This document shows, one piece after another, positions 3,569 to 27,931 of a stretch of 58,941 bases of DNA. Within the stretch, counting starts at the first letter, position 1; every line of letters starts with the position of its first letter. Position numbers and translations under genes: made by a program. Source of the stretch: a virus (taxonomy: Duplodnaviria > Caudoviricetes); IMG/VR virus record IMGVR_UViG_3300010354_000100, positions 1 through 58,941 of that record; one strand, 5' to 3'. Under the pieces are notes generated by a model. It saw only the letters and a list, made by a program, of their open reading frames with translations, was not told where the DNA came from and searched no databases.

Positions 3569-3600
3569 AATTAACCCAAAATCGCCGGAACACCATATTT
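3569..3600 (+). repeat. bipartite repeat copy 1 (degenerate)
   Basis: AATTAACCCA-N8-GGAACACCATATTT. Confidence 0.7.
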
Positions 3601-3607
3601 TGCGTGT

Positions 3608-3931
3608 TTAATCCTGCTCTAGCCGTCTCCTTCGCAACGTTTCGTCCGACACATTGACTTCCTTCAGATATTTTTTCTTCTCCCACGCTTCCAATGCTTT
3701 CATTCCCTTCGGCGTGATGCGAATATTCTCGCCGTCGCGTGCGCACCAGCCGTTCGAGATGTATCGCCGGATGTATTCGTACGTTTGTGAGAGTGTGGGA
3801 ACGTTCCGGCCCTTTGCGTGTGCTCCGTCTGCCGGAGTAACGAACTGGATGTATACCGGAGCGTTGAATTCTTTGCCGATTCGGTTATAAAACCGCATGA
3901 TGTTGAGAATGTTCCACTTATGATTGGTCAT
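3608..3931 (-). CDS. hypothetical protein, possibly winged helix
   Basis: YI..GW....IRITPKG wing-like motif. Confidence 0.5.
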   Translation of the reverse strand: MTNHKWNILNIMRFYNRIGKEFNAPVYIQFVTPADGAHAKGRNVPTLSQTYEYIRRYISNGWCARDGENIRITPKGMKALEAWEKKKYLKEVNVSDETLRRRRLEQD

Positions 3932-4461
3932 TTGTTTCTCCCGGCAATCAATCTAGCCAGCATGACATCCTTTTCCTCCTGAGTGAGAGGTTTTTTCCAG
4001 CGTGTGTGTGTCTTGGAGTACTTGCAGTTATGTTTTTTCATCGCGGCCTTCAACTTGTTTTGCGTTTCTTCGCCGAAGAACAGTCTGACGAGATGCAGAT
4101 ACGTGCGGCAGAACTCTCTTCCGTGTCCGGCATACTCTGATGGAGTGAGTACGTGAGCGATTTCGTGCACCACTACCCACTCGGTTCGTGTCTTGCGCGG
4201 GAATGCCACAGAGATGTGGGTGTCGTACCGGCAAGTAAGGGCCCGGCGGTGTCCGGCTCCGTTGAGTATCTTCAGTTTCTGCGTGCCAGATACGATTTCC
4301 CGCGCGATTGGGTATTTACTTTGGACCCACCGGTTCTCTAAAACCTTCCAGAAGTACTCCTCCAGTTCCTCCATGTCCCGGAACTTTTCTTTGGACCATC
4401 CGAACACTTCCCACTCGGAGGCATAGAGCCGGCTGCGTTGGCTGTCGCGCGGGCGCTTCAT
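3928..4461 (-). CDS. HExxH metallohydrolase, Rv0185-like
   Basis: RDSQRSRLYASE N-terminus; VVHEIAH...HGREF..YL.LV. Confidence 0.7.
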   Translation of the reverse strand: MKRPRDSQRSRLYASEWEVFGWSKEKFRDMEELEEYFWKVLENRWVQSKYPIAREIVSGTQKLKILNGAGHRRALTCRYDTHISVAFPRKTRTEWVVVHEIAHVLTPSEYAGHGREFCRTYLHLVRLFFGEETQNKLKAAMKKHNCKYSKTHTRWKKPLTQEEKDVMLARLIAGRNK

Positions 4462-4489
4462 GAGGCCTCAGAGAAACGGCGTACGGCAG

Positions 4490-4521
4490 AATAAAACCAT
4501 TTCTGCTGGAACACCATATTT
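4490..4521 (+). repeat. bipartite repeat copy 2
   Basis: AATAAAACCA-N8-GGAACACCATATTT. Confidence 0.85.
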
Positions 4522-4708
4522 TCGGGCCAGAGGCAGGAAATAAAAAACGAAATGTATTTATCAATCATGTTGGTATCAATTGTACAGGCAGCGGGCGCAG
4601 AAACCAACTTTTACCGGAAGAAAATTTCCTCAAGATTTTTTCACGGGAGGTTGTGATGTGTGGCAGAGCATGATACAATCTAAGTACAACCAAATGAAAG
4701 GAATACCA

Positions 4709-5002
4709 ATGACAAAAACAACTATTGAACTTGACGCCAGGATTGAGGAGGCCATTGACAAGGCCATCCAAGCATTCTGGGGAAGCATCGTAGAGAGTTT
4801 TCCGGAATCCACCGGAGGAGACTTTGACCCGATGTACGAAGGCGTCATGTACCACGAGGCGACCGGCTGGCTGCGTCACTGGCTAGAACTAAATTGCCTG
4901 ACCTGCGAGAAGTGCGGGTCGCTGGTGCCGGAAAGCGACGCGTGCTACGAGATGGCAGAAGTTTCGTGCCCGGGTTGTTTTTCAAAGCAGTTCTCCCTAT
5001 GA
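4709..5002 (+). CDS. hypothetical protein with C-terminal Zn ribbon
   Basis: promoter plus AAAGGA RBS; CxxC...CxxC. Confidence 0.7.
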   Translation: MTKTTIELDARIEEAIDKAIQAFWGSIVESFPESTGGDFDPMYEGVMYHEATGWLRHWLELNCLTCEKCGSLVPESDACYEMAEVSCPGCFSKQFSL

Positions 5003-5245
5003 TAGAATGTGATAACAACAACAACCCAATGGAGGTAACTTCCTGAGAAAAGTATTCGGCTGGCTCTTCGTGGCCTTTATCGCTGCCAATGCGAATGCGT
5101 GGGGCATGAGCAATCCGCTCATCCCTGTAGTTCTGCTTGGCGTCATCCTGTATCCATCAATCGTGGGGACCATCGGTCTCTGGCGCTTGCTGAGATTCAA
5201 CTACTTCCCAACACCACTACAACTACTGAAAGGATTCCGCAAGAT

Positions 5246-5491
5246 ATGGCCCGCCGTAAGAAAAGGTCCAGTCGTCACTCGGGTAAGTCGCCCATCATCA
5301 CGTACACCGTGAGTGTCGCGCACGAACCCGGCAGCGAATGCGACGCATGCGCGCAGCCCCGACCTGTTCTGATTGAGCAGGAAGGTGGCGCGTGGATATG
5401 CGAGATTTGCGCCGGCGGTGCAGACGCAGGAGATTTGTGGCGCGCAGCCATGCTCACCGGCGTTTACTCGTGGGGAGGAGACGGACTGTGA
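5246..5491 (+). CDS. small Zn-finger protein
   Basis: CDAC...CEIC. Confidence 0.55.
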   Translation: MARRKKRSSRHSGKSPIITYTVSVAHEPGSECDACAQPRPVLIEQEGGAWICEICAGGADAGDLWRAAMLTGVYSWGGDGL

Positions 5492-5985
5492 AGCAGATTA
5501 CCGACGAAGTCATCCACGACTACCAGGCCAACCTCTGGAAGAGCGCCGTCGAGCGACATGGGACAGCCCTCAAGGTCCCCAGTGACGAGCAGCAGCGCAT
5601 CGGAGAACTGGTCCGCGGTCTCTACGTCATGCAGACGTGGCAGGCACATGGAAGTCAGGGAAACCCTGTGCGGTTCATGAAAGATTATTCAATTTCCATG
5701 AACGTCATAGGAGTACTTATTCCGGCGTTCTTAGGAAAACAAAAACTGGTCGAGATTGAAGAAGTCAAGCCAGTGAAGCGCGCAGACAGATGGCGCACAC
5801 TCGAAGAGTGGGCCAAGAAACATACATACCACGAGGTCACGACGGAACAACTTGTCGAGATTTCCGGATTCTCCTACCAGACCGTACTGAACTACGTGAA
5901 GACTTCACCGTACTTCCGCAGGATTCAGCGCGGGCAGTGGGAAGTCAGAGACCCCAAAGAAGACAGAGCAAGAGAGAAAAACTAA
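5488..5985 (+). CDS. hypothetical protein, possible C-terminal HTH
   Basis: GTG start after GGAGGAG; TTEQLVEISGFSYQTV. Confidence 0.65.
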   Translation: MKQITDEVIHDYQANLWKSAVERHGTALKVPSDEQQRIGELVRGLYVMQTWQAHGSQGNPVRFMKDYSISMNVIGVLIPAFLGKQKLVEIEEVKPVKRADRWRTLEEWAKKHTYHEVTTEQLVEISGFSYQTVLNYVKTSPYFRRIQRGQWEVRDPKEDRAREKN

Positions 5986-6228
5986 ATGGCAAAGAAAACA
6001 GAGTTCCGGCAGCCGCCGGGACCGAGGAACGGCAGCCCATTCCAGGTCGCCAACTTCGTAGAGAAACTTAAAGACAATCCTGGAGAGTGGGCGGTCTACT
6101 GCACCGGCAATATTGCGCGGACCGGTCACTCCAAGGCACAGCAATATAAAAAGCGTTATCCAGGCACGGAGTGGATTGTCCGGCGCGAAGAAGACGGCTA
6201 CACCGTCTTTGGGCGCTGGGTGGGGTAA
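5986..6228 (+). CDS. hypothetical protein
   Basis: abuts the previous gene. Confidence 0.7.
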   Translation: MAKKTEFRQPPGPRNGSPFQVANFVEKLKDNPGEWAVYCTGNIARTGHSKAQQYKKRYPGTEWIVRREEDGYTVFGRWVG

Positions 6229-6237
6229 GGTGCTGCC

Positions 6238-6474
6238 ATGAAGCCACTCACTCTGAGTATCACTATCAACACGTACCGTGAGGGCGTGACGATAGCAAAT
6301 CTCATTCGAGAGCACGACGAAACTGCTGACGTACACCTGCACGAGGCCAAGAGGGGCAACGGGTGGGTCATCGTCTCCCACATCTGCATACCCCAGGAAG
6401 AAACAAACCGGCTACGCAGGCGCATCCGGGAGACCGGTGCCCTGTGCGTGGTGCGGGACGCAGACCAGGCCTAA
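6238..6474 (+). CDS. hypothetical protein
   Basis: AAGG RBS, in operon. Confidence 0.6.
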   Translation: MKPLTLSITINTYREGVTIANLIREHDETADVHLHEAKRGNGWVIVSHICIPQEETNRLRRRIRETGALCVVRDADQA

Positions 6475-6492
6475 GGGAACGGCTCCGCGCTA

Positions 6493-6524
6493 AATAAATC
6501 CGAAATATCTGGAACACCATATTT
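6493..6524 (+). repeat. bipartite repeat copy 3
   Basis: AATAAATCCG-N8-GGAACACCATATTT. Confidence 0.95.
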
Positions 6525-6641
6525 TGGGGACAGGGGCAAGTGAGACAGATTCCCAAAAGTGTCTCAAATAAAATACCGGACAGTTCTTGTGAAATTATGA
6601 ACAAGGTTGCAAAACCAGAAAGAATGTGCTACAATTTACTT

Positions 6642-6890
6642 ATGACAACACAATACCTATTACAGAAAACCAACGACAAGGGCTACCGGCGATTCGTAGC
6701 AAAACTCTTGGGAGACAAGGGCGGAACCACCAGTTCCCTCCATCACGCTCTCACTTGGGACAGCGTGGCGAATGCCGAGACCTTCCGCATCATCAATGGG
6801 CTTCACCAGTTTGAGATAGTTCTCTCTGACGGGACTGATGACCAAGATGCCGAGGCAAAAGCATTCTGGGCGGCAAAGAATGGAAAATAA
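6642..6890 (+). CDS. hypothetical protein (leaderless)
   Basis: ATG 7 nt after the -10 TACAAT. Confidence 0.65.
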   Translation: MTTQYLLQKTNDKGYRRFVAKLLGDKGGTTSSLHHALTWDSVANAETFRIINGLHQFEIVLSDGTDDQDAEAKAFWAAKNGK

Positions 6891-7188
6891 TCTTCACTGG
6901 ACGGATATGCTCCTCGCTGACCCCTCCACAGTTCGTGAATACATCATTGAGGAAGCAATTGACTGGTGGGTGTGTCGTTGCGGCAACAATCCAGACTCAG
7001 ATGGCTTCTCCACGTGTAGCGAAATAGGCGAACGCTGCGAGCCGACCATTGGACAGTGGGACGGCAAGCACTGGCTCTGCGAGTCCTGCTACCGAGTCAT
7101 TGACGGCGACACACTGGAAGTAATCAGTGGTTGTAGCCAAGATGTCGTAAATAAAAATGAGGAATATCGCTGGCACGAAGAGTTGTAA
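6880..7188 (+). CDS. Cys-rich hypothetical protein
   Basis: CRCGN...C...CESC. Confidence 0.65.
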   Translation: MENNLHWTDMLLADPSTVREYIIEEAIDWWVCRCGNNPDSDGFSTCSEIGERCEPTIGQWDGKHWLCESCYRVIDGDTLEVISGCSQDVVNKNEEYRWHEEL

Positions 7189-7244
7189 GACGTGCTAGAG
7201 TATGCTACAATGTAATAACAACCCAATCACAGAAAGAGAAACAA

Positions 7245-7415
7245 ATGAGCAAAACAAAATACCGGTATCACCTTTCGGCTTACCTTTCAGACTTCGTGGA
7301 ATCAACCAACGAGGATGAGGCGTGGGAAGCATTTCAGGAGATGGTCGCCAACGCCAAGTTGCGTGACTTCATCTTTGAGATGCAAGACATTGAGGAACTG
7401 GACGACGCACAATGA
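7245..7415 (+). CDS. small acidic hypothetical protein (not in ORF track)
   Basis: own promoter plus AGAAAGAG leader; MSKTKYRY... Confidence 0.65.
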   Translation: MSKTKYRYHLSAYLSDFVESTNEDEAWEAFQEMVANAKLRDFIFEMQDIEELDDAQ

Positions 7416-7717
7416 CCGTTCTTATCAAGATGCCCTTTGACAAGTGGTGCGAGAAATACCAACCAATCGTCAATGTCTTTGACAAGGATGCGTCGTTTAA
7501 TGACGGCGATTACGGACTTATGTTTGAGACATACGGGAAAGAACTGGACTTTGTTCTTGCCTATGTCAAAGCAAAGCCCCACAATGTCTGGACATACATT
7601 GACGGCGAGGAAGGCACGGTAGTCGTGAACGGCTATCACCTAGTAAATCGCATCGGGTATTTCGTGACCTACCAACCGGCAGAATCCGAGGCTTTCTACG
7701 AAATTGAGGTTTCGTAG
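7412..7717 (+). CDS. hypothetical phage protein
   Basis: ATGA overlap; FETYG.E...VWT...GYH.VNR.GY. Confidence 0.75.
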   Translation: MTVLIKMPFDKWCEKYQPIVNVFDKDASFNDGDYGLMFETYGKELDFVLAYVKAKPHNVWTYIDGEEGTVVVNGYHLVNRIGYFVTYQPAESEAFYEIEVS

Positions 7718-7780
7718 GTTGTCAAGTGTGCTACAATGTGGTACAATGTAAGTATGAACCCAACACAGAAAGAGAACACA

Positions 7781-8017
7781 ATGAAACAATTTATTATCAG
7801 GCAAACCGTTGACCTTGACCTCCAGTGGTTGATTGAGGCGGAGTCTGTGGAAGATGCCCTCGCAAAAGCGTGGGGCAACTTTGACAGCGCCAAAGTCGTG
7901 GACATCTGTCCTCTTGACTGGGACAAGCCGTGGGATGCCGAAGAAGTAGAGGGTAAAGCACCGTCTTTCCTCTCCGCTAAGGAACTCCGCAAGTGGCAGG
8001 AAGTTGGTCTCCTCTAA
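7781..8017 (+). CDS. hypothetical protein
   Basis: cassette promoter and leader. Confidence 0.7.
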   Translation: MKQFIIRQTVDLDLQWLIEAESVEDALAKAWGNFDSAKVVDICPLDWDKPWDAEEVEGKAPSFLSAKELRKWQEVGLL

Positions 8018-8099
8018 CCAGAGGTTGCCAAACCCGAAAATAAGTGATACAATCTAAGTAACAGCAATAACCAACTCAACACAGAAAGATAAAACAACT

Positions 8100-8564
8100 A
8101 TGGGATTAGATATGTACCTTTCCGCCAAGAAGTATTACTCAGGTGCGGATTGGCGAACAGAAGAGAATAAAAAAGACTTTCAGGAACTCCTGAAGAAGTC
8201 GGGTATCGCAAAGTATGTGAAAACCGAACTTGCGAGTATTCAGTTGGAAGTATCCATCGGCTATTGGAGAAAGGCGAACGCCGTTCACCAATGGTTCGTG
8301 GACAACTGCCAGAACGGCGAGGACGACTGTCGCTACGCCTATGTCGGGCGTGAGAAGTTGGAAGAACTGAAGGCTTTGTGCCAGAAGGTTCTTCTCCAGC
8401 CAGCAGTGGCAGACGAAGAACTGCCGACCCAGCAGGGCTTCTTCTTCGGCTCGTACGAGTACGACGAATATTATTTCCACGACATCAAGCACACGGTTGC
8501 CATTATTGACAACTGTCTGGCTATGCCTGATGATTGGGAGTTCTACTACCACTCATCGTGGTAG
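8100..8564 (+). CDS. conserved phage hypothetical protein (MGLDMYL...YWRKAN type)
   Basis: MGLDMYL, YWRKANAVHQWF, GFFFGS..YDE.Y, YY.SSW. Confidence 0.8.
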   Translation: MGLDMYLSAKKYYSGADWRTEENKKDFQELLKKSGIAKYVKTELASIQLEVSIGYWRKANAVHQWFVDNCQNGEDDCRYAYVGREKLEELKALCQKVLLQPAVADEELPTQQGFFFGSYEYDEYYFHDIKHTVAIIDNCLAMPDDWEFYYHSSW

Positions 8565-8727
8565 ACACGACTGGCTGGGCTTGTCTGCGCGACATTGTCA
8601 ACAACGGCAACATGACCCAGCCACTAGTGGCTTGTGGTGGGGAGGGATTTCCCCACCACAGGTTGTTATTAGTGATACAATATGATACAATGTAGTTATG
8701 AACACAACTCAACAGAAAGGCAACACA

Positions 8728-8949
8728 ATGAACTTAGACGAATGGAACAACAGATACCTCGGAGCGGTCATCGCCGTCGCCGAAGGTTCGGCTAAACCGA
8801 CCGACGAGATGGAAGATGGCTTCGCAGGCTTCGTGCTTGATGGCATCTTGGCAATCAAGGATGTCGAGACCGACCTCAACGACTGGGACTTGGTGGAACA
8901 CATCGCAGACTTCTGCGAGATGTCTATCGCCATTCAGGAGCGTTTCTAA
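8728..8949 (+). CDS. acidic hypothetical protein
   Basis: cassette promoter and AGAAAGG leader. Confidence 0.7.
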   Translation: MNLDEWNNRYLGAVIAVAEGSAKPTDEMEDGFAGFVLDGILAIKDVETDLNDWDLVEHIADFCEMSIAIQERF

Positions 8950-9182
8950 TGACGACCATATGGCTTGACATAGAGAGTGGTACCTACTACTCGTGCCCGC
9001 CCCTGCGCATCAGAACAAACGACTGGTTGGCAAAAGACTGGGAGTGCTGGACTGAAACCATGTCTGACTTAGACCGTCAGGCGTGGGGCGAATACCATCT
9101 TCAGTATGGTCAGACTAAACAAGTCCGTCCGTCTGAATGGTGCGACCCAGAAAACGATATTGCGGGATGGCCATACACATGA
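8949..9182 (+). CDS. Trp-rich hypothetical protein
   Basis: TAATG translational coupling. Confidence 0.6.
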   Translation: MTTIWLDIESGTYYSCPPLRIRTNDWLAKDWECWTETMSDLDRQAWGEYHLQYGQTKQVRPSEWCDPENDIAGWPYT

Positions 9183-9259
9183 GCAAGGTCACAATCGTCC
9201 TCGCTCTGTGCGTTATCTACTTGGCAGCAGTAATCATCGGAAGAAAGGCAGTCAAATGA
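9179..9259 (+). CDS. 26-aa single-TM peptide
   Basis: ATGA overlaps at both ends; MSKVTIVLALCVIYLAAVIIGRKAVK. Confidence 0.5.
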   Translation: MSKVTIVLALCVIYLAAVIIGRKAVK

Positions 9260-9402
9260 ATATTCACATCAAAGAACCACACGAGTTCACGCCCGAGGAA
9301 GCCCGGAGGTTTATCCAAGCAATCTTGGACTACCAGCCGGAAAGCCGGTGGGAAAGACTCAATAATTGGCTCGCAAAGGTTGTGAGACGACGCAATAAGT
9401 GA
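9256..9402 (+). CDS. small hypothetical protein
   Basis: ATGA overlap. Confidence 0.5.
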   Translation: MNIHIKEPHEFTPEEARRFIQAILDYQPESRWERLNNWLAKVVRRRNK

Positions 9403-9451
9403 TACAATTGAGTTGTAAGCAATACCAACCCAACAACAGAAAGAGAACATA

Positions 9452-10129
9452 ATGCCAAACTGGTGCTACAGCAACATAGACATCATCGGTGACCGGGACG
9501 AACTCCAGAGTTTCGTTGACGCAACCAAAGTTGTCGCAGAGGACGGAGTTGTCCATCACGGACTAAACCACCTCTTCCCAATTCCAGCAGAACTCCAAGC
9601 AACGCCGTCGGCGTGGTACGGAGACGCAGAAGAGCAGGCTAAGCAGACCGCCCTAGAAGAGGCGATGTTTGCTAAGTACGGCTACAGGAACTGGTACGAC
9701 TGGGCTTGCGACGACAAGAACTGGTCTACCAAGTGGGGTGCGTGTGACTTTGAGTGGACTTCGTTTGATATGGATGACAACTACATCGTCGGACCGACTG
9801 AGCCGTACATCTCTGCGAAATACCAGAGTGCGTGGGGTCCAGCAGACGGACTCATCCGCAATATCTCAGCCAAGTTCCCGAAACTTATCTTCACCGTGGT
9901 CTCCACAGAAGAGAGCGACGCATTCGTCTGCTACTCCATCTTCCGTAACGGATTGCTGGAAGCAGAAGGCGGTGAGGAGCCGGTACAGCCGAAAGAACTT
10001 GAGGAACTCTACGAGAAGGACCCTGACGCCTTCTACGAGCAACTCGGTGACTGGCAGTGCGAGTACCAAGACAAATGGTCCAATGAGTGCGACAAGGCTC
10101 TCTCTGGGCTGATGTCCAGCCAGAACTAG
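9452..10129 (+). CDS. DUF1281/YubB-like ferredoxin-fold protein
   Basis: MPNWC.N, NWYDW...NW.TKW, SAW.P motifs. Confidence 0.7.
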   Translation: MPNWCYSNIDIIGDRDELQSFVDATKVVAEDGVVHHGLNHLFPIPAELQATPSAWYGDAEEQAKQTALEEAMFAKYGYRNWYDWACDDKNWSTKWGACDFEWTSFDMDDNYIVGPTEPYISAKYQSAWGPADGLIRNISAKFPKLIFTVVSTEESDAFVCYSIFRNGLLEAEGGEEPVQPKELEELYEKDPDAFYEQLGDWQCEYQDKWSNECDKALSGLMSSQN

Positions 10130-10647: not shown

Positions 10648-10699
10648 TCAACGTCCCTCGGGCTGGACACACCCAGCCCAAGGGAACGACACAGCGCTA

Positions 10700-10730
10700 A
10701 ATAAATCCGATATCCAAGGAACACCATATT
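10700..10730 (+). repeat. bipartite repeat copy 4
   Basis: AATAAATCCG-N8-GGAACACCATATT. Confidence 0.95.
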
Positions 10731-10858
10731 GTGTGGCAGGGGCAGTTTTACTGCCGGCCCGGACACCTCCAAGATTTTTTCATAAGAGGTTGTGTCTGTG
10801 TCCACTATGTGGTATCCTTGAATCATAAGCAATAACCAACCCAAGAAAGGCAATAGAA

Positions 10859-11086
10859 ATGAAAACCACCAACCCACAACAGAACACGGTTCGCAGCCGC
10901 ATGACCCAGTTGCGTATTGACGCAGGTCTCTCGCAAGAGGCACTCGCCAAAGCAGCAGGAATCGACCGCAAGACCGTGAATCGTATTGAGAACGGGCACT
11001 TCTCCCCGAACCTCGATACCTTCTTCCGTTTGTGCGTCGCGCTTGATGTGCGCCCAGCAGACCTCATGAAGGGAATCGGCAAGTGA
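10859..11086 (+). CDS. XRE-family HTH regulator
   Basis: LSQEALAKAAGIDRKTVNRIENG..SP.L. Confidence 0.9.
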   Translation: MKTTNPQQNTVRSRMTQLRIDAGLSQEALAKAAGIDRKTVNRIENGHFSPNLDTFFRLCVALDVRPADLMKGIGK

Positions 11087-13315: not shown

Positions 13316-13473
13316 CAAAACAAAAAATCACGCGAGTACAGTGGCTCGCGCGGTCGGGTCTTTCCTTCCCTTGTGTCCCGACCGTCGGCTCGTGGGCCGC
13401 TGGCGTTCTTTCCTTTCTGTCGCCAGCGGCCCCGCTGCCCGGCCCGGGTGCCCAAGGGAACGGCCGCGCCCTA

Positions 13474-13505
13474 AATAAATCCGAAATCTGTGGAACACCA
13501 TATTT
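13474..13505 (+). repeat. bipartite repeat copy 5
   Basis: AATAAATCCG-N8-GGAACACCATATTT. Confidence 0.95.
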
Positions 13506-13556
13506 TTGGGAGGCGGGCAGAGGCAATCATCTATTCCGGGGGCCACCGGGCGAAAG

Positions 13557-13577
13557 TTATCCACAGCCTGTGGATAA
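13557..13577. promoter_or_regulatory. inverted pair of perfect DnaA boxes
   Basis: TTATCCACA-gcc-TGTGGATAA. Confidence 0.8.
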
Positions 13578-15495: not shown

Positions 15496-15566
15496 CCTAG
15501 GTCCCGGCGCGCCTTACCTCCTTTCCGCGCGCCGGGACCATCGGGCCCAAGGAAATCGCCGCGCCG

Positions 15567-15595
15567 AATAAATCCAACAATCAAGGAACACCATA
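15567..15595 (+). repeat. bipartite repeat copy 6
   Basis: AATAAATCCA-N8-GGAACACCATA. Confidence 0.9.
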
Positions 15596-15823
15596 AATTC
15601 GGGGGGCGGAGGCAGGTTTGCCGGGAGCAGGGGCAGGCCCCGGGCGACCGGCACAGGGCCGCACGCATCTCACCCGCTACTACTATTGTAGCACAAACTG
15701 ACGCAGAAAGCAACCCAAAAAGAAATTTATCTTTCTTCCCGTAGAGGTTGCTATCTGTCTAACAATATGGTACCATTGAGTTGTGGGGAATAAGCCCCAC
15801 CGAACAGAATAGGAGCAATAACA

Positions 15824-17786: not shown

Positions 17787-17868
17787 GCAGGTTCGGCTGG
17801 TGGGGCTCTCCTTACCCACCAGCCACAACCCGCCGCCGGGCAGAGGCCAAGGGAAACGCAGCGCGTGG

Positions 17869-17896
17869 AATAAATCCGATTATCTTGGAACACCAT
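17869..17896 (+). repeat. bipartite repeat copy 7
   Basis: AATAAATCCG-N8-GGAACACCAT. Confidence 0.95.
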
Positions 17897-18032
17897 TTCT
17901 TGCGCGGAGGCAGGGGCAGGCGGGCCGGCCACGCAGAGTGGTCGCCGGCCACCCAGAGTGACCAGCCGGCTGTAATCAGATTGTAATACTAATAGTGTTG
18001 CAAATCTGTCTAACATACCCTACAATCTAAGT

Positions 18033-18947: not shown

Positions 18948-19028
18948 TTGGCAAGCGTGCCGGCATCGCCTCCTTGGTGCCGGCACGCAACGCCAGCGGG
19001 CAGAGGCCAAGAGAAACGCCGCTCGCGA

Positions 19029-19057
19029 AATAAATCCGATTACGAAGGAACACCATA
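19029..19057 (+). repeat. bipartite repeat copy 8
   Basis: AATAAATCCG-N8-GGAACACCATA. Confidence 0.95.
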
Positions 19058-19292
19058 AATTCGGGCGGGAGCCAGGAGCAGGTTTGTGAAAGTGTGAACA
19101 ATCACAAACCTTGTAACACACTTGTAACACTCAGGATTAGACAAGTGTCTAACAGTATGGTATCCTATTACTAGTGGGGCAACCCACCGAATAAAAAAAC
19201 TGTCGGGCAGGTTGTCAATCTGTCTAACAGTCGCTACAATCTAAGTAGTGGGCAATCCCGCCCACTACAACCCAATGAAAGAGGTAATGAGA

Positions 19293-19550: not shown

Positions 19551-19715
19551 TCGGGCAAGGTTCGGGCGGGACAACCCGCCCGAACCAACCCGATAGGGCA
19601 GGCGGCAGGGGCAGGCGGGCAAAAAAGTTTGCCTCTCAGGTTGCGAGAATAGAATAAGTGTGATACAATAATAGTAGTGGGCAATCCCGCCCACACGAAC
19701 AGCAAGGAGAACAGA

Positions 19716-19997
19716 ATGACACTCAAAAGAATGCCGAGAGGCGCAAAACTGACTACGGCGTGGTGCGAGGTGAGTTCGTATGCCTACCCCAAAGGGTGGA
19801 ATAACGAAGTCACTATCTGCCACTACGAGGCTGATATGACATACGCAGACGGGTTCGTAATTCCCGCAGCGATGGTTGCCGTCTATGACGATGGCAAGTG
19901 TGTCTATCGGCAAGCGTTCTACGGAGAGACAGCCGTAAGCGATGCTGAACGGTTCGGCAACGATGCCGTCAGCAAAGCGTTGTACGCCAACGCCTAA
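19716..19997 (+). CDS. hypothetical protein
   Basis: AAGGAG RBS; FYGETA.SDAER. Confidence 0.7.
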   Translation: MTLKRMPRGAKLTTAWCEVSSYAYPKGWNNEVTICHYEADMTYADGFVIPAAMVAVYDDGKCVYRQAFYGETAVSDAERFGNDAVSKALYANA

Positions 19998-20126
19998 GCG
20001 CAACGGAATAACTGTCGGGCAGGCAACACCTGCCCGACAGATAACCGTGTAACACCCTCTCGCTACAATGGGAGGGGGAGACTTCACGCGCGCGGGCGGG
20101 TGCCATCAAGGAAACGCAGCGCACGG

Positions 20127-20157
20127 AATAAATCCGATTGTGAAGGAACACCATATT
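20127..20157 (+). repeat. bipartite repeat copy 9
   Basis: AATAAATCCG-N8-GGAACACCATATT. Confidence 0.95.
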
Positions 20158-20241
20158 GTCAGGGGGCGGAGGCAGAATTGTTGCCGGGAGCCGGCGGCCG
20201 CGGAGCGTGACTGCCCGACCACTCAGAGTGGTGAATAACTT

Positions 20242-21461: not shown

Positions 21462-21602
21462 ATGAGGAAACAACAGCACAACAACAAGCGCCGAGCGTGG
21501 AACGCAACAGACCGACAAGCATACGCCGACGGGCTGCGCACACGAGCGGTGACTATCCACCACAAGCGCAAGCCTGCGCCGACAGTCCGAGAATGGGACT
21601 GA
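21462..21602 (+). CDS. small basic protein (leaderless, not in ORF track)
   Basis: ATG 7 nt after the -10; MRKQQHNN... Confidence 0.55.
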   Translation: MRKQQHNNKRRAWNATDRQAYADGLRTRAVTIHHKRKPAPTVREWD

Positions 21603-21708
21603 ACAGCGGGCCGGCAAAAATAATCCTCTCAGGAGTTGCGAAACTCTCAGGAGTGTGATACACTAATAGTAGTGGGGCAAAAGCCTCACCTAACCAAAGG
21701 AGAAAAAA

Positions 21709-21867
21709 ATGAAAGAACATAACTGGACATTCGTAGACGAGGACAGCATCCGCTGCTCAGACTGCGACTGCCGTTTTGGTGGACGCTGGCACGACCTGCC
21801 CTGCGGTTCGTCGGAGGAGGAGTACATCGCCTTCGCCAACGCTCGCCAGAGCGAATACCTCAAATAA
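21709..21867 (+). CDS. small Cys-rich protein (not in ORF track)
   Basis: AAGGAG RBS; H.W...CSDCDC...PCG resembles the 16162 gene. Confidence 0.65.
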   Translation: MKEHNWTFVDEDSIRCSDCDCRFGGRWHDLPCGSSEEEYIAFANARQSEYLK

Positions 21868-21952
21868 GCCGAGACGCCCCGCGGGTTCCACCTCCTTCCC
21901 CCGCGGGGCAATTCGGGGCCGCCGGGCGGGGCCCAAGGAACGCTCAGCGCGA

Positions 21953-21984
21953 AATAAATCCGAACATTCTGGAACACCATATTT
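21953..21984 (+). repeat. bipartite repeat copy 10
   Basis: AATAAATCCG-N8-GGAACACCATATTT. Confidence 0.95.
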
Positions 21985-22190
21985 TCGGAAGCGGGCGGAG
22001 GCAGATTGTGAAAGTTCGCACTTTCACAAGACCGAGGAAGGCCGACCACTCTCCGTGACTAGCCGACCACTCTCCGTGAAGTGTAACAATTGTGTGACAT
22101 CTGCCGAAATCGGGAGTAAATGGTACACCCATAGTGTACACTGTTATTAGTGGGGAAAACGCCCCACCTAACCAAATGGAGGTAAGCAGA

Positions 22191-22523
22191 ATGAAAATCA
22201 CACTAGAACATCTCACTTCGGGCGTAGCCCGAAAAGTGGAGTACTGGTACGGCGAATGCGACCCAGCCGAAATTGAGGATGGCGTACTTGACGTAACCTA
22301 CGGCACTTTGGAAGTTACCTTTACTTCGGGACGCTCTTATGAGTACGCCGAAGTCACGGTAGGAACCTTTGCCGAACTAATCAAGGCAGTGAGTTTCGGC
22401 AAGTTTCTCAATCAGGAAATCAAGCCGTACCACGAGGTTCGTGAGACCACCCCAGCCGAATTGCTCGCCGAAATCAAGGCAAAGCAGGCTGAGGCAAAGG
22501 CTCTCAAAGCCTCGCTCGCCTAG
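22191..22523 (+). CDS. KTSC-domain protein
   Basis: GTLEVTFTSGRSYEY..V....LI.A.SFGKFLN.EIK. Confidence 0.8.
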   Translation: MKITLEHLTSGVARKVEYWYGECDPAEIEDGVLDVTYGTLEVTFTSGRSYEYAEVTVGTFAELIKAVSFGKFLNQEIKPYHEVRETTPAELLAEIKAKQAEAKALKASLA

Positions 22524-22720
22524 TCGGGTCGGGTCGGTGGGGCGAAAGCCTCACCGACCACCACCGGGCAGGGGCAGTTTGTGCGTTCTGGTATGTCTGT
22601 CTAACAGCCCACTAGACGCAATAGGAAGCGATTAGAGAGGCTCTACAAAAAAGATAAGACTAGGGCAGAATAACTACCTTGTCTCACAGCCTGAGCAATC
22701 TGGAAGCGTCTGGCAAGGGG

Positions 22721-22734
22721 CGAACATACGTTCG
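22721..22734. promoter_or_regulatory. LexA (SOS) box
   Basis: CGAAC-ATAC-GTTCG. Confidence 0.75.
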
Positions 22735-22870
22735 GTCGGCGGGCGAAGAGCACCGGGCAGCGGGCTTGTGAAAAGTTTCTTTTGTTTGGAGTTGCGAAAC
22801 TGTCGCAAGTGTGATACACTTTTATTAGTGGGGCAATCGCCTCACATAACACAACAAGGAGAAAAAAGTA

Positions 22871-23119
22871 ATGCGACACAAAGGAATGGTGGCAAGTGCC
22901 GAAGTGGTACTTAGCCCGACAATTGAGTACGGAGTCCGTACTGAGTGGGCAATAGCCCTCCACTTTCAGAGCCCGACTGGTGACAGTTCGGACTTTATGG
23001 TGCGAGAGTTGCCCTGCCTCTCACGAGAGCAGGCAGTCATTATTGCCGACAAGTGGAATAGCGAAGTATGCCCCGAACTGGTGGGCAGGTTCGCAGTATC
23101 CGACCTGTTGCCGAACTAA
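22871..23119 (+). CDS. hypothetical protein
   Basis: AAGGAG RBS. Confidence 0.7.
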   Translation: MRHKGMVASAEVVLSPTIEYGVRTEWAIALHFQSPTGDSSDFMVRELPCLSREQAVIIADKWNSEVCPELVGRFAVSDLLPN

Positions 23120-23296
23120 CCAACCCAAAAGGGTGGGGCGAAAGCCCCACCCGACAGGGGGCGGCAGAGGCAGCGGGCGAATTCTGTAACACAAAAGTAA
23201 CAAAAAAAAGTGTGTTTCGGGTTGACAACCGTACACCCTTGTGATACACTGTAATTAGTGGGGAAAACCCCACTACAACACAAAGGAGAAAACCAA

Positions 23297-23536
23297 ATGA
23301 ACGGAATAGTCGGAACAAGGGTGGCAATGCCAGCCAACCCAACAGCGTGGCTGAGGGACAACGCTCGCAAGGGCGCAATGCTCTACACCCGAGACGGCGT
23401 GACCGTGGCACTGGTGAACACCCAGACCACCTACGGAGACCCAGACAAGGGCACCCAGCAGCACCCCCTCTACGCCCCCCAGGGCGAGGGCAAGCGGGTC
23501 TACTCGGCTCGCCCAGTAATGCCAATGCTTGACTAA
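23297..23536 (+). CDS. LRDNAR-family paralog 2
   Basis: TAWLRDNARKGA..TRDGV...TY.DPD.G.Q.HPL. Confidence 0.75.
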   Translation: MNGIVGTRVAMPANPTAWLRDNARKGAMLYTRDGVTVALVNTQTTYGDPDKGTQQHPLYAPQGEGKRVYSARPVMPMLD

Positions 23537-23743
23537 GAACCCCCGAAGGGGAAGGGCGAAAGCCCTTCCCCGAACGGCGGGCAGAGGCAGCCCCCGGGCG
23601 AGCGGGCGTTTCTGTATGTCTGTCTAACACCCGATTAGAAGCGTCAGGAAGCCCCAGGACGCGAGCAGAAAAAAAGTGGAGACTAGGGCAGAATAAATAG
23701 TCTGTCTCACAACCTGACGCACTAGGGCACGTCTGGCAGAGGG

Positions 23744-23757
23744 CGAACGTATGTTCG
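23744..23757. promoter_or_regulatory. LexA (SOS) box
   Basis: CGAAC-GTAT-GTTCG. Confidence 0.75.
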
Positions 23758-23842
23758 CTCGGAGGGCGAGGAAGGCAGCGGGCCGGCAAAAAAAGTTTCT
23801 CTCGGAGTTGACAAACCGCTTAGGCTGTGATACACTAATAAC

Positions 23843-24130
23843 ATAAGCAACAACGGCGAAAGCGGGTAGTCCGCTAGTAACCAGACAACTAGCAGCCCCC
23901 ACTCTCTGGGCAACAATCCCCGTGAGAAGATAAGTGGCGACCCAAGCGGTCGGGCAAACGGGTGCGACGTTGGCGGTAGGTGAAAGCCCTACGACATACA
24001 ACCCCGAAAGGGGTGAAACGCGCCAAGGCTTCGGCGTGCGAGACGCACGTTACGGCTACGAAGCAAGAGGGCACGGTGAGGCTTTACCTGACGGGCAACA
24101 ATCCCCTAGTAGGCAAAGATAGCCACCCGC
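23843..24130 (+). ncRNA. putative highly structured ncRNA of about 290 nt
   Basis: promoter at 23807, no RBS-led ORF, closing helix 23862-70/24122-30, many hairpins, two GGG-CAACAAT-CCC stem-loops. Confidence 0.65.
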
Positions 24131-24234
24131 AGCGGGTGAGAACCCCGCAAAAATAATTCTCTCAGGAGTTGACAAACTCCCGAGGGTGTGATACACTGGA
24201 ATTATCAGGCAATAACCAACCCAAGGAGGAAACA

Positions 24235-24489
24235 ATGGACACAATGGATTATCTCTCGGCAGAGCAGGTCAACGGAATAGACCCATTCTGCGAATGGTGC
24301 GGGCGGGTCACCTGCCACATTGGGGAGCACGAGCACGAACTGGCGCTAGGGCTTGTCACCTACGAGGAGAACAGTTACGTCAAGGTAACCGCCCTCGGGT
24401 ATGCGGTCAAGGCGAACGAGGAGGTTTCTCGCAAACTCTCGGATGCGCTCTACGGGCTCTACCTCATCGAGGGAGAGGTTGCTCAATGA
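24235..24489 (+). CDS. hypothetical protein (CxxC..CH)
   Basis: AAGGAGG RBS. Confidence 0.7.
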   Translation: MDTMDYLSAEQVNGIDPFCEWCGRVTCHIGEHEHELALGLVTYEENSYVKVTALGYAVKANEEVSRKLSDALYGLYLIEGEVAQ

Positions 24490-24617
24490 GACTCCAACTA
24501 TTGCTCACCTGCCCCGAATGCGGGCAGACGCTCACGAGGGAGGAGATGGCTTACGGTCACGACTGCGAAGTCCCAGCCGAAGGACAGTGGAGCCCCGAGG
24601 AGGACGATAACGCCTAG
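24486..24617 (+). CDS. small Zn-finger peptide
   Basis: ATGA overlap; CPEC...YGHDCE. Confidence 0.6.
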   Translation: MRLQLLLTCPECGQTLTREEMAYGHDCEVPAEGQWSPEEDDNA

Positions 24618-24858
24618 CCCCCGGGCAGCGTTGCCGAAGGGCGGCAGAGGCAGAGGAGAGAGGCGGCGGGCGAGCGGGGCGGTCTCTCCCCGACTTTTCC
24701 TCCCTGCCCCTCTACTTCCATTGTAGCACAACCCGACGCAAAAAGCAACCTCTAAAAATAAATTTTTTTTCTTCCCGTAAGAGTTGACAGTACGCCCCAC
24801 ACTTGGTACAATGTAGTTGTAAGGCAATCCCGCCTTACAAACAGAAAGAGGTAACTCA

Positions 24859-25101
24859 ATGAGTCAAGTCCAAGAAGGTGAGATGGTGAACGTGTTCCAG
24901 TTCCGCTTTCTCATCCACTGCTACATCACAGAGATTCTCTCAGGTCTCCGTGTGTGTCAAATCCCACTGAGCCGAGTCGCCCCACGATTCGGTGTCACCA
25001 CCAAGAACAAGAAGAAGGCACTCACCCAACTCCTCGCCAACTACGAGGCAACAATGGGCGAGCCTTACGAAGACGACCGCCTAGTGCGAATCTTCGGCTA
25101 G
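24859..25101 (+). CDS. hypothetical protein
   Basis: GAGG RBS, cassette. Confidence 0.7.
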   Translation: MSQVQEGEMVNVFQFRFLIHCYITEILSGLRVCQIPLSRVAPRFGVTTKNKKKALTQLLANYEATMGEPYEDDRLVRIFG

Positions 25102-25167
25102 CGAGTCCGCTCGGGCAGGCAACCCCTGCCCGAGCACTTTCGCACGAGGGCGGCAGAGGCAGGCGGG

Positions 25168-25181
25168 CGAACGTATGTTCG
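25168..25181. promoter_or_regulatory. LexA (SOS) box
   Basis: CGAAC-GTAT-GTTCG. Confidence 0.75.
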
Positions 25182-25441
25182 CCCCCGGGCGATGAGAGCG
25201 GCGGGCTGCGGCGGTGGCGGGCCGAGGAGAAGAGAGGCGGCGGGCAAGAAGGGCGGCGGGCCAGAGCCGAGGAGGGAGACGGTCTCTCCCCTCCCCCACT
25301 ATCAGTGTATCACATCTAAGCGAATTTGTCAACCTCAAAAGATTTATTTTTTTTTGGCGTTTTAGGTTGACAAATGTCTGACAATACCCTATACTGGAAT
25401 TAGTGGGGAAAACCTCACCTAACACAATAAAGGAGAACAAA

Positions 25442-25516
25442 ATGACTAACGAAGAGTTCCTCGCAAAGGTTGCCGAGATTGTAGAAGAGATTCTCGCAAT
25501 CGTTGACGAAGAGTAA
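25442..25516 (+). CDS. 24-aa acidic amphipathic micropeptide
   Basis: own promoter plus AAGGAG RBS; MTNEEFLAKVAEIVEEILAIVDEE. Confidence 0.6.
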   Translation: MTNEEFLAKVAEIVEEILAIVDEE

Positions 25517-25601
25517 ATAAAAAATAGGGGTTCGGGTTGACAAAAGCCCGAACCTCTGTTATACTTAGATTAGTAGGGAATACCAACCAAAGGAGAACAA
25601 A

Positions 25602-25748
25602 ATGGAAAACGAAGACCTAGACAGAATTATCTGGAATGAGTACGAGGCAGGCTGGTACGGAGTGCCAGTAGGCAAGTACACCTACCGACAAATGCTCGCC
25701 AAGTGGAGAGCCGAAAACGAAGAAATCCGAAAGGCGAAAGCCAACTAG
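25602..25748 (+). CDS. small hypothetical protein
   Basis: own promoter plus AAGGAG RBS. Confidence 0.65.
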   Translation: MENEDLDRIIWNEYEAGWYGVPVGKYTYRQMLAKWRAENEEIRKAKAN

Positions 25749-25909
25749 GACCGAGAGTCCCGAAGGGGGAGGGCGACCTCCCCCGAGAGGGGCGACAGGG
25801 GCAGCCCCGGGCGGCGGACAAGAAATATTTGCCCGAGAGGTTGACAAATCAAAAGTAATGTGATACACTGGTTTTAGTAGGGAATACCAACAACAAAAGG
25901 AGAAACACA

Positions 25910-26119
25910 ATGGATAAGAACAAGCAACTACAAAACCTCGCCGAGGAGTTCTTCGGTGAGTGGGCAATCGTCGCCAGCGACATTCCTGCTGTCGTGAAGA
26001 CTTTCGCCCGATACCTTCGCAGTGAGAAGGGCTTCACGCTCAACATCACCGACGAGGCGTGGGAGCGCTACACGGCGGGCTGGTTCGCCAAGCGGCTCTC
26101 GCCAGCGGGCCGCCGCTAA
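25910..26119 (+). CDS. hypothetical protein
   Basis: own promoter plus AAGGAG RBS. Confidence 0.7.
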   Translation: MDKNKQLQNLAEEFFGEWAIVASDIPAVVKTFARYLRSEKGFTLNITDEAWERYTAGWFAKRLSPAGRR

Positions 26120-26225
26120 ACCCCAAGGGGAGAGGCGAGAAATATTTGCCCACGGAGTTGACAAACCGAGGGTGGTGTGATACACTGGAATTATCAGGTA
26201 ATAACCAACACAAAGGAGAAACATA

Positions 26226-26423
26226 ATGAAGGAATACACACTGGTAGCAGAACTCACCGACGCAGAGGGTGGCGAGTGGACGGCGGACGCCGGAATCCTC
26301 GCAGCCGATGATGCGTCGGCAGTTCGTCAGGCTCGCATTTGGGCAAAGGACGAGGCGACGGCACAGGGTGCCAAACTCGTCGAGTTCTACGCTCAGGATG
26401 CCCAGGGCGTGGCGCACCGCTAA
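26226..26423 (+). CDS. hypothetical protein
   Basis: own promoter plus AAGGAG RBS. Confidence 0.7.
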   Translation: MKEYTLVAELTDAEGGEWTADAGILAADDASAVRQARIWAKDEATAQGAKLVEFYAQDAQGVAHR

Positions 26424-26444
26424 ACCCCCAAGGGGAGAGGCGAG

Positions 26445-26458
26445 CGAACACTTGTTCG
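26445..26458. promoter_or_regulatory. LexA (SOS) box
   Basis: CGAAC-ACTT-GTTCG. Confidence 0.7.
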
Positions 26459-26583
26459 CCCTCCCCTGAGGGAGGCGGCAGAGGCAGAAATAGGAGGGCG
26501 AGCGCAAAAAATGTTCGCCCGAGAATGCTTGACAAATGTCAGAGAGTGTGATACACTGGTATTAGTAGGGAAAGGAGACCCGA

Positions 26584-26712
26584 ATGACACCAAGAGACCA
26601 GAACAGAATCACGAGGGACGAGCACGAGGTCGTACCGATTTACGACTGGGCGCTTGACCCCGAAATGAACGAGGACTTCGCCCAGTGGGCTGAGGAACTC
26701 GCCGAGGGCTGA
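26584..26712 (+). CDS. small acidic protein
   Basis: own promoter plus AAGGAG RBS. Confidence 0.6.
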   Translation: MTPRDQNRITRDEHEVVPIYDWALDPEMNEDFAQWAEELAEG

Positions 26713-26871
26713 GAGGTCCGAGGAGAAGGGCGACAAAAGAAAATAGTCCTACCAAGGGGGACGGCCTTGCCTGACGGCGGGCCTCCCCCGAGGAGGAGAA
26801 GGATTCCGGAGGGAGAGGTTGTCTTTCCCCGAGGGAAGTTGTATAATAAAAGTAACAAGAAAGGGAAAGTA

Positions 26872-26937
26872 ATGCATTGGGCGTTCGGATTCGCACTCGT
26901 TGCGCTAACCATTCGGTTAGTCGGAAAGAGTCAATAA
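26872..26937 (+). CDS. 21-aa hydrophobic micropeptide
   Basis: promoter with TATAAT plus AAGGG RBS; MHWAFGFALVALTIRLVGKSQ. Confidence 0.45.
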   Translation: MHWAFGFALVALTIRLVGKSQ

Positions 26938-27007
26938 CAAAGGTTGCAAAAACTCAAGACATCTGTTATACTAATAACAGGGCAGAGAGAAAGGAAAAGG
27001 TAAACAC

Positions 27008-27103
27008 ATGGTTATCGAAATTTATGACTGGATGTGTGCCGTGCCGGTGGCAGTTGCTGCCGTCGTCATCGCCGTCATCTTCAAAGCCAAGAAAATGAAG
27101 TAA
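27008..27103 (+). CDS. 31-aa single-TM peptide
   Basis: promoter plus AAGG RBS; ...VPVAVAAVVIAVIFKAKKMK. Confidence 0.55.
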   Translation: MVIEIYDWMCAVPVAVAAVVIAVIFKAKKMK

Positions 27104-27360
27104 TCCAAGGGCGCAGCCCTGCGGGCGAGTGTGTTCGCCTGCGGGGCTCGCCTACGGGCGAGGCTTGTGAAAATCTGCACGAACCACGGGCGGCGGGCAA
27201 GAGCGGAGGAGAAGGGCGACCATCTCACGATTTTGGTCAAAACCCGAGGATGCGGCGGGCGAAGAGAGAAAAAAATGTGCCGCGGGAGTTGCGCGCGGGC
27301 TGAATCTGTGATACACTGGGATTAGTGGGGAAAACCCCACCAAACACAAAGGAGAAGACA

Positions 27361-27579
27361 ATGAAAACCATCAACGAGCAAGCACAAGAAATGCGAGAGT
27401 TACTGAGCCACTTGGTCTCCCGGATAGACGAAGCGGTGAACCAAGCCAACGAGGAAAGCGACAAGGAGTACGCAGACAATCAACTCGCAGATGAGTTGAG
27501 CAGCGTGGCCTTCCGGTGCGACCACCTCGCCTACGACTACAAGTACGGCCAAGACATCCTCCGAGCCTCCGAGCGGTAA
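27361..27579 (+). CDS. hypothetical helical protein
   Basis: own promoter plus AAGGAG RBS. Confidence 0.7.
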   Translation: MKTINEQAQEMRELLSHLVSRIDEAVNQANEESDKEYADNQLADELSSVAFRCDHLAYDYKYGQDILRASER

Positions 27580-27899
27580 AGACTTCGGCGGTCGCACAAA
27601 AAGTCAAGTGCGACCGCCGGAAGTTTCTTCCGGAAAGCCCCAGGACGGTAAGGTCTGCGGGCGAGGTATGCGGGCGATACAGCGGGCAAGCGACACCGGC
27701 TGCGAAGGGCAGTGGCAGAGGAGAAGGAAGGGCGACCACGGAGAGTGATTGCCGGCCACGGAGAGTGAGCAATTTATCTCGCGTTTTTGGAAAAAAACCG
27801 AGGATGGCGGGCAAGGCCAAGGGCAAGGGCGGTAACGCGACCGGGGCGGCGGGCCGCCCGGGTGCCGACGCCCGGGAGCCAAGGAAACGCTACGCGCAG

Positions 27900-27931
27900 A
27901 ATAAATCCGAATATCTTGGAACACCATATTT
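27900..27931 (+). repeat. bipartite repeat copy 11
   Basis: AATAAATCCG-N8-GGAACACCATATTT. Confidence 0.95.

Follow-up and report, generated by a model that had tools for sequence, protein, structure and literature searches.

The DNA element considered here is a two-box motif repeated eleven times in the early region of an uncultured freshwater phage (IMG/VR virus record IMGVR_UViG_3300010354_000100), and it can be compared with several described systems. The entire record, 58,941 bp long with a completeness rating of 43%, was analysed and is referred to below as the window. In phage T4, middle promoters combine a MotA box near -30 with a sigma70 -10 element and depend on sigma appropriation by AsiA and MotA. 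Cluster A mycobacteriophages have stoperators, single boxes of about 13 bp that occur genome-wide and are bound by the immunity repressor. Promoters of extracytoplasmic function (ECF) sigma factors have the -35 sequence GGAAC. In T4-like phages, PeSL cassettes are small terminator/promoter repeats located among small early genes in variable regions, where they can act as points of homologous exchange (PMC4122927).

The element in the window is a genuine regulatory element, specific to this lineage and under strong selection, and it is probably a new promoter variant. The more specific reading that we favour, to which we would give slightly less than an even chance, is that it may be a phage-specific promoter read by a redirected host polymerase, forming a second class beside 43 ordinary sigmaA-type promoters. 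As in T4 middle promoters, a phage-specific box would replace the -35 at a fixed distance from a -10-like element (as proposed here), and the sites belong to the early region, where they share one orientation and stand in tandem with ordinary early promoters. In T4, small phage proteins on sigma region 4 re-aim the host polymerase; here there are candidate proteins only. Unlike T4 middle promoters, the element has an unrelated sequence, a probably actinobacterial host, a non-canonical CATWTT and a third, upstream box; there is no MotA or AsiA homologue here. The timing of expression in actinobacteriophages that lack their own polymerase is largely unexplained, and uncultured freshwater lineages are unstudied.

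Copies, anatomy and conservation of the element

A search of the window for AATAAATCCG-N8-GGAACACCAT, allowing up to three mismatches, gave eleven matches, all on the plus strand, with 0.01 expected and 11 reached in 0/100 shuffles. Eight copies are exact, and those starting at 15567, 4490 and 3569 have one, two and three mismatches, respectively. These are the positions and the single strand named in the original prediction, which had also described the copies as intergenic, 0.9-6 kb apart and absent beyond 28 kb. Independent gene calls agree with the intergenic placement, start-to-start gaps range from 921 to 5,947 nt, and no copy was found after 27,927. Ten of the eleven copies are upstream of plus-strand genes, at a frequency of one element per block of 1-10 genes.

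The element is also present in related phages, where, as the original prediction had suggested looking, the spacer length is kept. When IMG/VR was scanned for exact matches to the pattern, eight other contigs yielded 20 stretches. With up to three mismatches, the copies per record are 13 in G001, 11 in G002, 9 in G003, 9 in G004, 6 in G005, 2 in G006, 1 in G007 and 3 in G008; within each record they occupy a single strand, and a reversed-pattern control gave 0 in all. G004 is a near-duplicate of G003 with a constant offset of 214, and the single G007 copy, which sits within a 577-aa (amino acid) frame on a contig of 35% GC, was rejected as a chance match. Six distinct related IMG/VR phage records hold the element, clustered within one region of about 25 kb. 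A genome scan over 185,579 species matched it just two isolated times, in metagenome-assembled genomes of Bdellovibrio and Thomasclavelia, which were discarded as host or prophage copies and taken as chance. The element is phage-specific. It had not been recognised as a described element, and the searched literature likewise gave no description; the motif strings returned unrelated primer-type matches only, among the matches listed.

The anatomy was read from ungapped and gapped alignments of 61 copies (at most 4 mismatches, G007 match included). An upstream box, the U box CCAAGGGAACGG, with variants that include AAGGAAACG and AAGAAACGG, is followed after 9-12 nt by box 1 (AATAAAWCCR), then exactly 8 nt, box 2 (GGAACACCATWTTTTGGG) and a G-rich tail nCAGGGGCA, usually in the form nCAGGGGCA(G/A)A. 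The extension to about 75 bp noticed earlier can be refined accordingly, with the U box upstream and WTTTTGGG followed by the G-rich tail downstream. The distance from the U box to box 1 is flexible, differing by at least 3 nt. Where a box-2 site of the window or its relatives has a box 1 (at most 1 mismatch) no more than 40 nt away, exactly 8 nt separate the two in 50/50 cases, and 13 more forward box-2 sites have only a more degenerate box 1. The spacer had been described as variable in sequence and fixed in length; its length is indeed constant, but its sequence is not free, being AT-rich with T at position 18 in 39/61 copies.

Conservation reaches beyond all of the search patterns. Positions 29-36 are conserved (T30 in 59/61 copies, T31 in 55/61, T32 in 58/61, T33 in 59/61 and G36 in 54/61), with A at position 29 in just 33/61. 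Given that three variant copies (G008 119, G008 1452 and G005 19012) replace GGAAC while they keep box 1 and ACCATATTTTGGG, the strongest constraint lies on AATAAAWCC...ACCATWTTTT. In syntenic pairs of copies from the window and G001, identity is 70/70 in box 2, 62/70 in box 1 and 45/56 at positions +29..+36, and the flanks are 30-35% identical in ungapped comparison. From TAAAWC (positions 3-8) to CATWTT (positions 26-31) there are 17 bp, as in nearly all of the sigmaA-type promoters of the phage, and the element has a bipartite layout like that of a -35/-10 promoter, in which co-oriented, intergenic copies keep this 17-bp hexamer spacing fixed. The general idea of an asymmetric, protein-read DNA site of fixed geometry holds.

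A fixed spacer would suit a coding sequence, but reverse-strand frames that start from the ATG in box 2 are short (4-153 codons, median 32, with 26/61 reaching 40 codons), and the element is not a gene. A protein-coding repeat on the reverse strand was ruled out by the inconsistent frame lengths across the 61 copies. An AAATAT/ATATTT hairpin within the motif was also rejected, as it is not retained in other copies.

The promoter reading and its alternatives

Ordinary sigmaA-type promoters are abundant in the same region. The pattern TTGnnn-N16-18-TAYMVT has 47 matches on the plus strand, 43 of them within 4651-27317 and 39 with an extended TGn; the minus strand has 10, and controls with reversed sequence gave 4 and 13. 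The 43 promoters are nearly identical (GTTGCAAAAC/TTGACA, 17 nt, TGTGATACACT/TACAAT), and there is nearly one for each small early gene. Given that almost every small early gene has such a promoter, the motif is a distinct class of signal. The consensus scan passes over the motif, which has no TTG at the -35 position, in keeping with the earlier statement that it is not a sigma70 promoter. Matches of the sigma54, sigma28 and SigH/E type were sought informally, by eye, against the usual consensus sequences, and none fits. After some sigmaA-type promoters there is a 5' hairpin TAGTGGGG..CCCCAC. The first sigmaA-type promoter past a copy often has the word TCTGTCTAACA in its spacer (15748, 17998, 19137, 19212, 25367 and about 28150), and this word may be an operator within the promoter spacer.

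If the element is a promoter, TAAAWC (positions 3-8) in box 1 would be the -35-like contact, and CATWTT (positions 26-31) in box 2, 17 bp on, would be an easily melted, -10-like sequence with GGAACAC ahead of it, where an extended -10 would lie. The expected start is a purine near positions 37-41, within the conserved GGG/nCAGGGGCA tract. The WTTTT run, the GGG after it and the G-rich tract at its fixed distance resemble a -10 element, a discriminator and a start region. At about -50 to -58, with variable spacing, the U box could be touched by an activator or by the alpha subunit of the polymerase. The element would usually be attached to a terminator-like hairpin that closes the gene block before it. 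Given that the five examined records are without a phage RNA polymerase, we suspect that the host polymerase is the reader, diverted to the element by either a phage factor or an alternative sigma factor of the host. The promoter dimensions, the melting T run, the G-rich tract, the orientation and the placement after hairpins favour the promoter reading over the others. Of the candidates in the original prediction it is the best fit to a rigid two-box unit that is intergenic and co-oriented, although neither a phage polymerase nor a complete sigma factor, with which a promoter had been paired there, was found.

Several findings weigh against this reading. Between the motif and the first gene there is already a sigmaA-type promoter at 7/11 copies by pattern, and a -10-only site by eye at three further copies. 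We know of no sigma specificity that fits CATWTT or TAAAWC, and sigma region 2 (PF04542) was found in 0 of five records. Conservation over more than 50 bp exceeds what most promoters need, and copy 1 would read antisense through two conserved minus-strand genes. The gene for a 94-aa protein, one of the candidate readers discussed below, occurs with the same recognition helix in more distant phage loci, and in 26/26 of these the motif is missing. Contigs of the identical strain from RNA libraries begin 10-25 nt after predicted sigmaA-type starts (15794/15796, 16137, 19686 and 22161) and none begins after the motif, which is bridged by some contigs of relatives (21474-22076). The RNA data come from four metatranscriptome runs (10-16% of sampled words) and consist of assembled contigs, in which uncovered stretches carry no meaning. 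Given that assembled contigs cannot show 5' ends, they neither support nor refute promoter activity. Contigs from three runs, starting at 19686-19734, also cover a small gene at 19677-20057 that simple gene calls missed, and which has a sigmaA-type promoter at 19641-19669.

Some of these findings would suit oriented regulator sites that initiate nothing, and instead act at block boundaries as a roadblock or insulator, in the manner of stoperators, or as a loading or organising site, perhaps for ParB_N proteins. We regard this as doubtful, though deserving of more weight than the other alternatives. An asymmetric, multi-copy, intergenic site that is co-oriented with transcription and placed at boundaries just past hairpins is what such a regulator might use; conservation extends past 50 bp, further than a minimal promoter does, the genes downstream already have sigmaA-type promoters, and copy 1 is placed where stopping rightward transcription would protect convergent genes. 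The phage family also encodes two ParB_N proteins, a Cro/CI-type helix-turn-helix (HTH) protein and other small HTH proteins. However, copy 2 (4490) receives no rightward transcription, as the genes on its left are on the minus strand, and a regulator site leaves the T run and the G-rich tract at fixed distance unexplained. In addition, sites of ParB and of HTH dimers are usually palindromic, which the element is not, and no protein is tied to the site. The element is like the stoperators in being asymmetric, intergenic and present in many copies of a single orientation relative to transcription, in an actinobacteriophage. Unlike them, it extends over more than 50 bp as three boxes, occurs in the early region only and has no linked repressor.

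The earlier description of the element as not a hairpin is correct for the element itself, which forms none, but 10/11 window copies are preceded by a hairpin (-20 to -34 kcal/mol), with 9-36 nt between its end and the copy. Over the 61 copies, the upstream 73 nt have a mean z of -2.2 against mononucleotide shuffles, with z at -2 or higher in 29/61; because z is below -2 in just 32/61, the upstream hairpin is frequent but not obligatory. If the element is a promoter, the presence of this hairpin at most window copies and about half of the aligned ones would be a likeness to PeSL cassettes; a one-copy indel between short repeats is also seen here. The difference is that the PeSL promoter is an ordinary early promoter, whereas here the 43 sigmaA-type promoters are separate from the repeated element. 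Long pyrimidine-rich hairpin loops (CTTACCTCCTTTCC, TTCCACCTCCTTCC), at window positions 15505-15540, 17800-17830, 18958-18990, 21880-21912 and 13400-13440, resemble the 3' end of 16S rRNA. Other hairpins of the region have a GAAA tetraloop (GGGTGGGGC-GAAA-GCCCCACCC), unlike the loops upstream of the motif.

The hairpins raise the question of an RNA-level element in read-through transcripts, with a role in processing, antitermination or something ribosome-related, in which upstream CCUCCUU-type loops would act together with a downstream GGAGG tract. RNA-library contigs do cross the motif (21474-22076), the contigs with loose ends at 13494 and 21950 reach 255 nt or more upstream, about 15/61 upstream hairpins have CU-rich loops 10-18 nt long, and GGAGG is found downstream of several copies. 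We nevertheless think such a role improbable. In our reading of the 61-copy alignment the core of the element has no internal pairing and no covarying stem, an Rfam search of the region gave no family besides tRNA-Thr, and copies 6493 and 10700 are without GGAGG. Many copies have a weak hairpin or none, and the RNA-library contigs possibly come from contaminating DNA.

Should the element turn out to be a promoter for redirected polymerase, it would point to a new role for WhiB-like proteins, a group that is widespread in actinophages and little understood; a mere regulator site or recombination-prone repeat would be ordinary. In either case, such a sharply defined signal is a handle that could serve as pull-down bait, as a reporter promoter or as a marker of this phage lineage of roughly 106 kb.

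Candidate readers and searches for enzymes

Two small proteins may be readers of the element, and both are unproven candidates. The first is a WhiB-like protein of 187 aa encoded at 23..586 on the plus strand of the window (Pfam Whib, E 1.4e-12). WhiB proteins bind sigmaA region 4, and residues 36-116 of the model match WhiB3 (Z 7.9) and WhiB1 (Z 7.5) bound to sigmaA region 4. The protein has a family-specific C-terminal extension of 70 residues, for which no structural match was found within the whole-protein model, a result that is for this reason little informative. Its homologues form 17 clusters, all of 181-187 aa and all within this lineage.

The second candidate is a 94-aa HTH protein encoded in relatives, just upstream of the stretch equivalent to the window. 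It stands alone and has a region 4.2 signature of the ECF type. The protein occurs in 53 clusters at 69% identity or more; PF08281 is present in about 20 of these, and the second HTH helix, VSKPLIQQMVALARKI, does not vary. The model (pLDDT 93.5) resembles sigma region 4 chains (Z 5.8-7.0) and the DeoR DNA-binding domain (Z 7.8), values that are middling, and a search of PDB sequences with a profile of the protein gave none below E = 1. The protein is only weakly linked to the motif. The motif is found near the gene in 8/8 close loci with enough downstream DNA, and at seven intermediate loci the downstream DNA is too short or the motif is missing. Because the family also occurs in the distant loci that lack the motif, the 94-aa protein is unlikely to read the whole motif alone. 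A diverged motif in phages whose 94-aa protein is 50-65% identical was considered and rejected, as the frequent 10-mers there are coding coincidences. A complex prediction for the two candidates, run without controls, gave a score of 0.00, which speaks neither for nor against binding.

It is conceivable, if unlikely, that the WhiB-like protein with its novel C-terminal domain seizes sigmaA region 4 of the host, alone or with the 94-aa protein, and re-aims the polymerase from the 43 canonical early promoters to a tripartite promoter made up of the U box, AATAAAWCCR, N8 and GGAACACCATWTTTT. Such appropriation would give an early to middle/late switch that needs neither a phage sigma factor nor a phage polymerase. 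The ECF systems offer a further parallel, since the U box and box 2 each contain GGAAC and the family has the stand-alone protein with the region 4.2 signature. Unlike ECF promoters, however, neither GGAAC is followed 16-18 nt later by a conserved GTT or CGT, the three variant copies do without the box-2 GGAAC, the distance from the U box to box 1 varies by at least 3 nt, and no sigma region 2 was found in the five records.

Family searches were made in six frames over five records (G000-G004, or G000-G003 plus G005), whose CheckV completeness is 43-79%. Region-4-like HTH matches in these records were weak only, and a Pfam scan of 69 early window proteins found no sigma factor. It did find the WhiB protein, a Cro/CI HTH (10859-11086), a ribbon-helix-helix protein and several domains of unknown function. 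With respect to a phage polymerase, the element is like the promoters of T7-like single-subunit enzymes in being long, conserved and phage-specific and in ending in ...CACCATA followed by a G-rich tract. It differs from them in being 8 nt longer, and PF00940, the family of the T7-type polymerase, was found in 0/5 records; this is a weak test, as 0 control genomes matched either. In G001, all frames of at least 640 aa are tail, tape-measure, head, helicase, ParB-like or low-complexity, and there is no unassigned open frame of polymerase size.

The suggestion that the element is a site-specific recombination site for cassette exchange did not survive these searches, and we consider it very improbable. 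It drew on the arm-8-arm layout, and it could also appeal to the variable cassette content among relatives (little in G002 corresponds to window 22.6-27.8 kb) and to one G002 copy that is missing from the window. However, the arms are not inverted repeats, as box 1 and the reverse complement of box 2 agree at 3/10 positions when read from the sequence. Tyrosine integrase (PF00589) and resolvase (PF00239) were found in 0/5 records, with controls matched in 14/14 and 12/14; because the records are incomplete, this falls short of proof of absence. Over most of 0-22 kb, the genes keep the order that they have in G002, the closest relative. In G002, the additional copy is flanked by a short direct repeat, GCAGGGGC, which fits deletion or ordinary homologous exchange rather than cleavage in the spacer. 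Without inverted arms or a recombinase, and with collinear gene order, site-specific recombination is unlikely.

A signal for strand-specific nicking, or for halting DNA during stepwise entry, had also been suggested; phages whose genomes have localized single-strand interruptions provide the analogy. The single strand, the fixed geometry and the restriction to one end region of the map would be compatible with such a role. We consider it quite improbable, as the copies avoid coding sequence wholly and have a fixed relation to hairpins and gene starts, neither of which a nick signal needs, and no nicking enzyme was identified.

The eleven copies, their surroundings and the source record

All eleven copies are on the plus strand. 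Copy 1 (3569..3604) is the degenerate AATTAACCCA-N8-GGAACACCATATTTT; it faces convergent minus-strand genes at 3608-4461, and its degenerate form is retained at the syntenic site in G001, G002, G003, G005 and G006. Those genes, bracketed by copies 1 and 2, are the only minus-strand genes in the motif region, and one of them encodes an HExxH-type motif (VVVHEIAHVL). Copy 2 (4490..4525) reads AATAAAACCA-N8-GGAACACCATATTTTCGG and has a sigmaA-type promoter 161 nt downstream. Copy 3 (6471..6538), with U box, box 1, N8, box 2 and G-rich tail, is full and is the reference copy of family D3.

Copies 4 to 10 are also full elements. A hairpin, GGGCTGG-acacac-CCAGCCC, directly adjoins the U box of copy 4 (10678..10745), and an inverted pair of the 9-mer TTATCCACA lies about 80 nt downstream of copy 5 (13452..13519). 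Copy 6 (15545..15612) has A as the final base of box 1 and is the one whose upstream hairpin has the loop CTTACCTCCTTTCC. It is followed by copy 7 (17847..17914), copy 8 (19007..19074), which has a TGTGA-N12-TCACA palindrome after it, copy 9 (20105..20172) and copy 10 (21931..21998), which is followed by the palindrome GTGAAAGT-TCGC-ACTTTCAC. Downstream of copy 11 (27878..27945), the last, plus-strand genes continue into packaging and head genes.

Palindromes are common in the leaders past the copies. TGTGA-N12-TCACA occurs 25-30 nt past several of them (window 22006-22029 and 19056-19085; G001 near 782, 99694 and 104421), and other leader palindromes are CCACTC-N-GAGTGG, GAGACA..TGTCTC and GCGAACA..TGTTCGC. 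All of them probably serve small HTH proteins as operators. The 9-mer TTATCCACA is DnaA-box-like and has four perfect occurrences, at 13557, 13569(-), 28000 and 29377, with 0.36 expected; the one at 28000 is about 100 nt past copy 11. The word GCCGACCACTCTCCGTGA forms a tandem or inverted repeat near copies (window 22040-22080 and 27735-27775), and RNA-library unitigs end at these repeats, as repeats would predict.

The right half of the window encodes the large terminase, the portal, an 870-aa protein that contains a protease, the major head protein and ribonucleotide reductase, and the window has one tRNA, the tRNA-Thr. A megablast search of 20 kb against 50,697 deposited phage records gave no match and no close relative. 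The nearest terminase matches, at most 43.5% identical, are those of the methanogen phages psiM2/psiM100 and of Gordonia or Brevibacterium phages. Given the WhiB-like gene, the Gordonia/Brevibacterium-type terminase and promoters of the form TTGnnn-N17-TGnTAYAMT, the host of the phage is probably an actinobacterium. An archaeal TATA/BRE reading, raised by the psiM2 match, was ruled out by the WhiB gene and the 43 sigmaA-type promoters.

The related record G001 (106,278 bp) is syntenic with the window at 65-85% nucleotide identity. Because the window bridges its two ends, it is maybe a nearly whole, permuted genome of about 106 kb, and both G001 and G002 may be permuted genomes of about 105 kb that are close to complete, although CheckV puts them at 75-79%. 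Both of these contigs break inside the promoter-repeat region equivalent to window 22.2-27.8 kb. Just ahead of the early region, G001 encodes adjoining ParB_N-domain proteins of 439 and 515 aa (74150-77016; L032:14150-17016), and a tRNA-methyltransferase-like gene comes after the pair. Elsewhere in G001 (53312-55450; L031:13312-15450) there is a 712-aa protein that consists largely of threonine runs, with a signal-like N-terminal and a C-terminal membrane segment; a family match was sought for it and none was found. Its gene lies near a tryptophan-halogenase-like gene and two glycosyltransferase-like genes.

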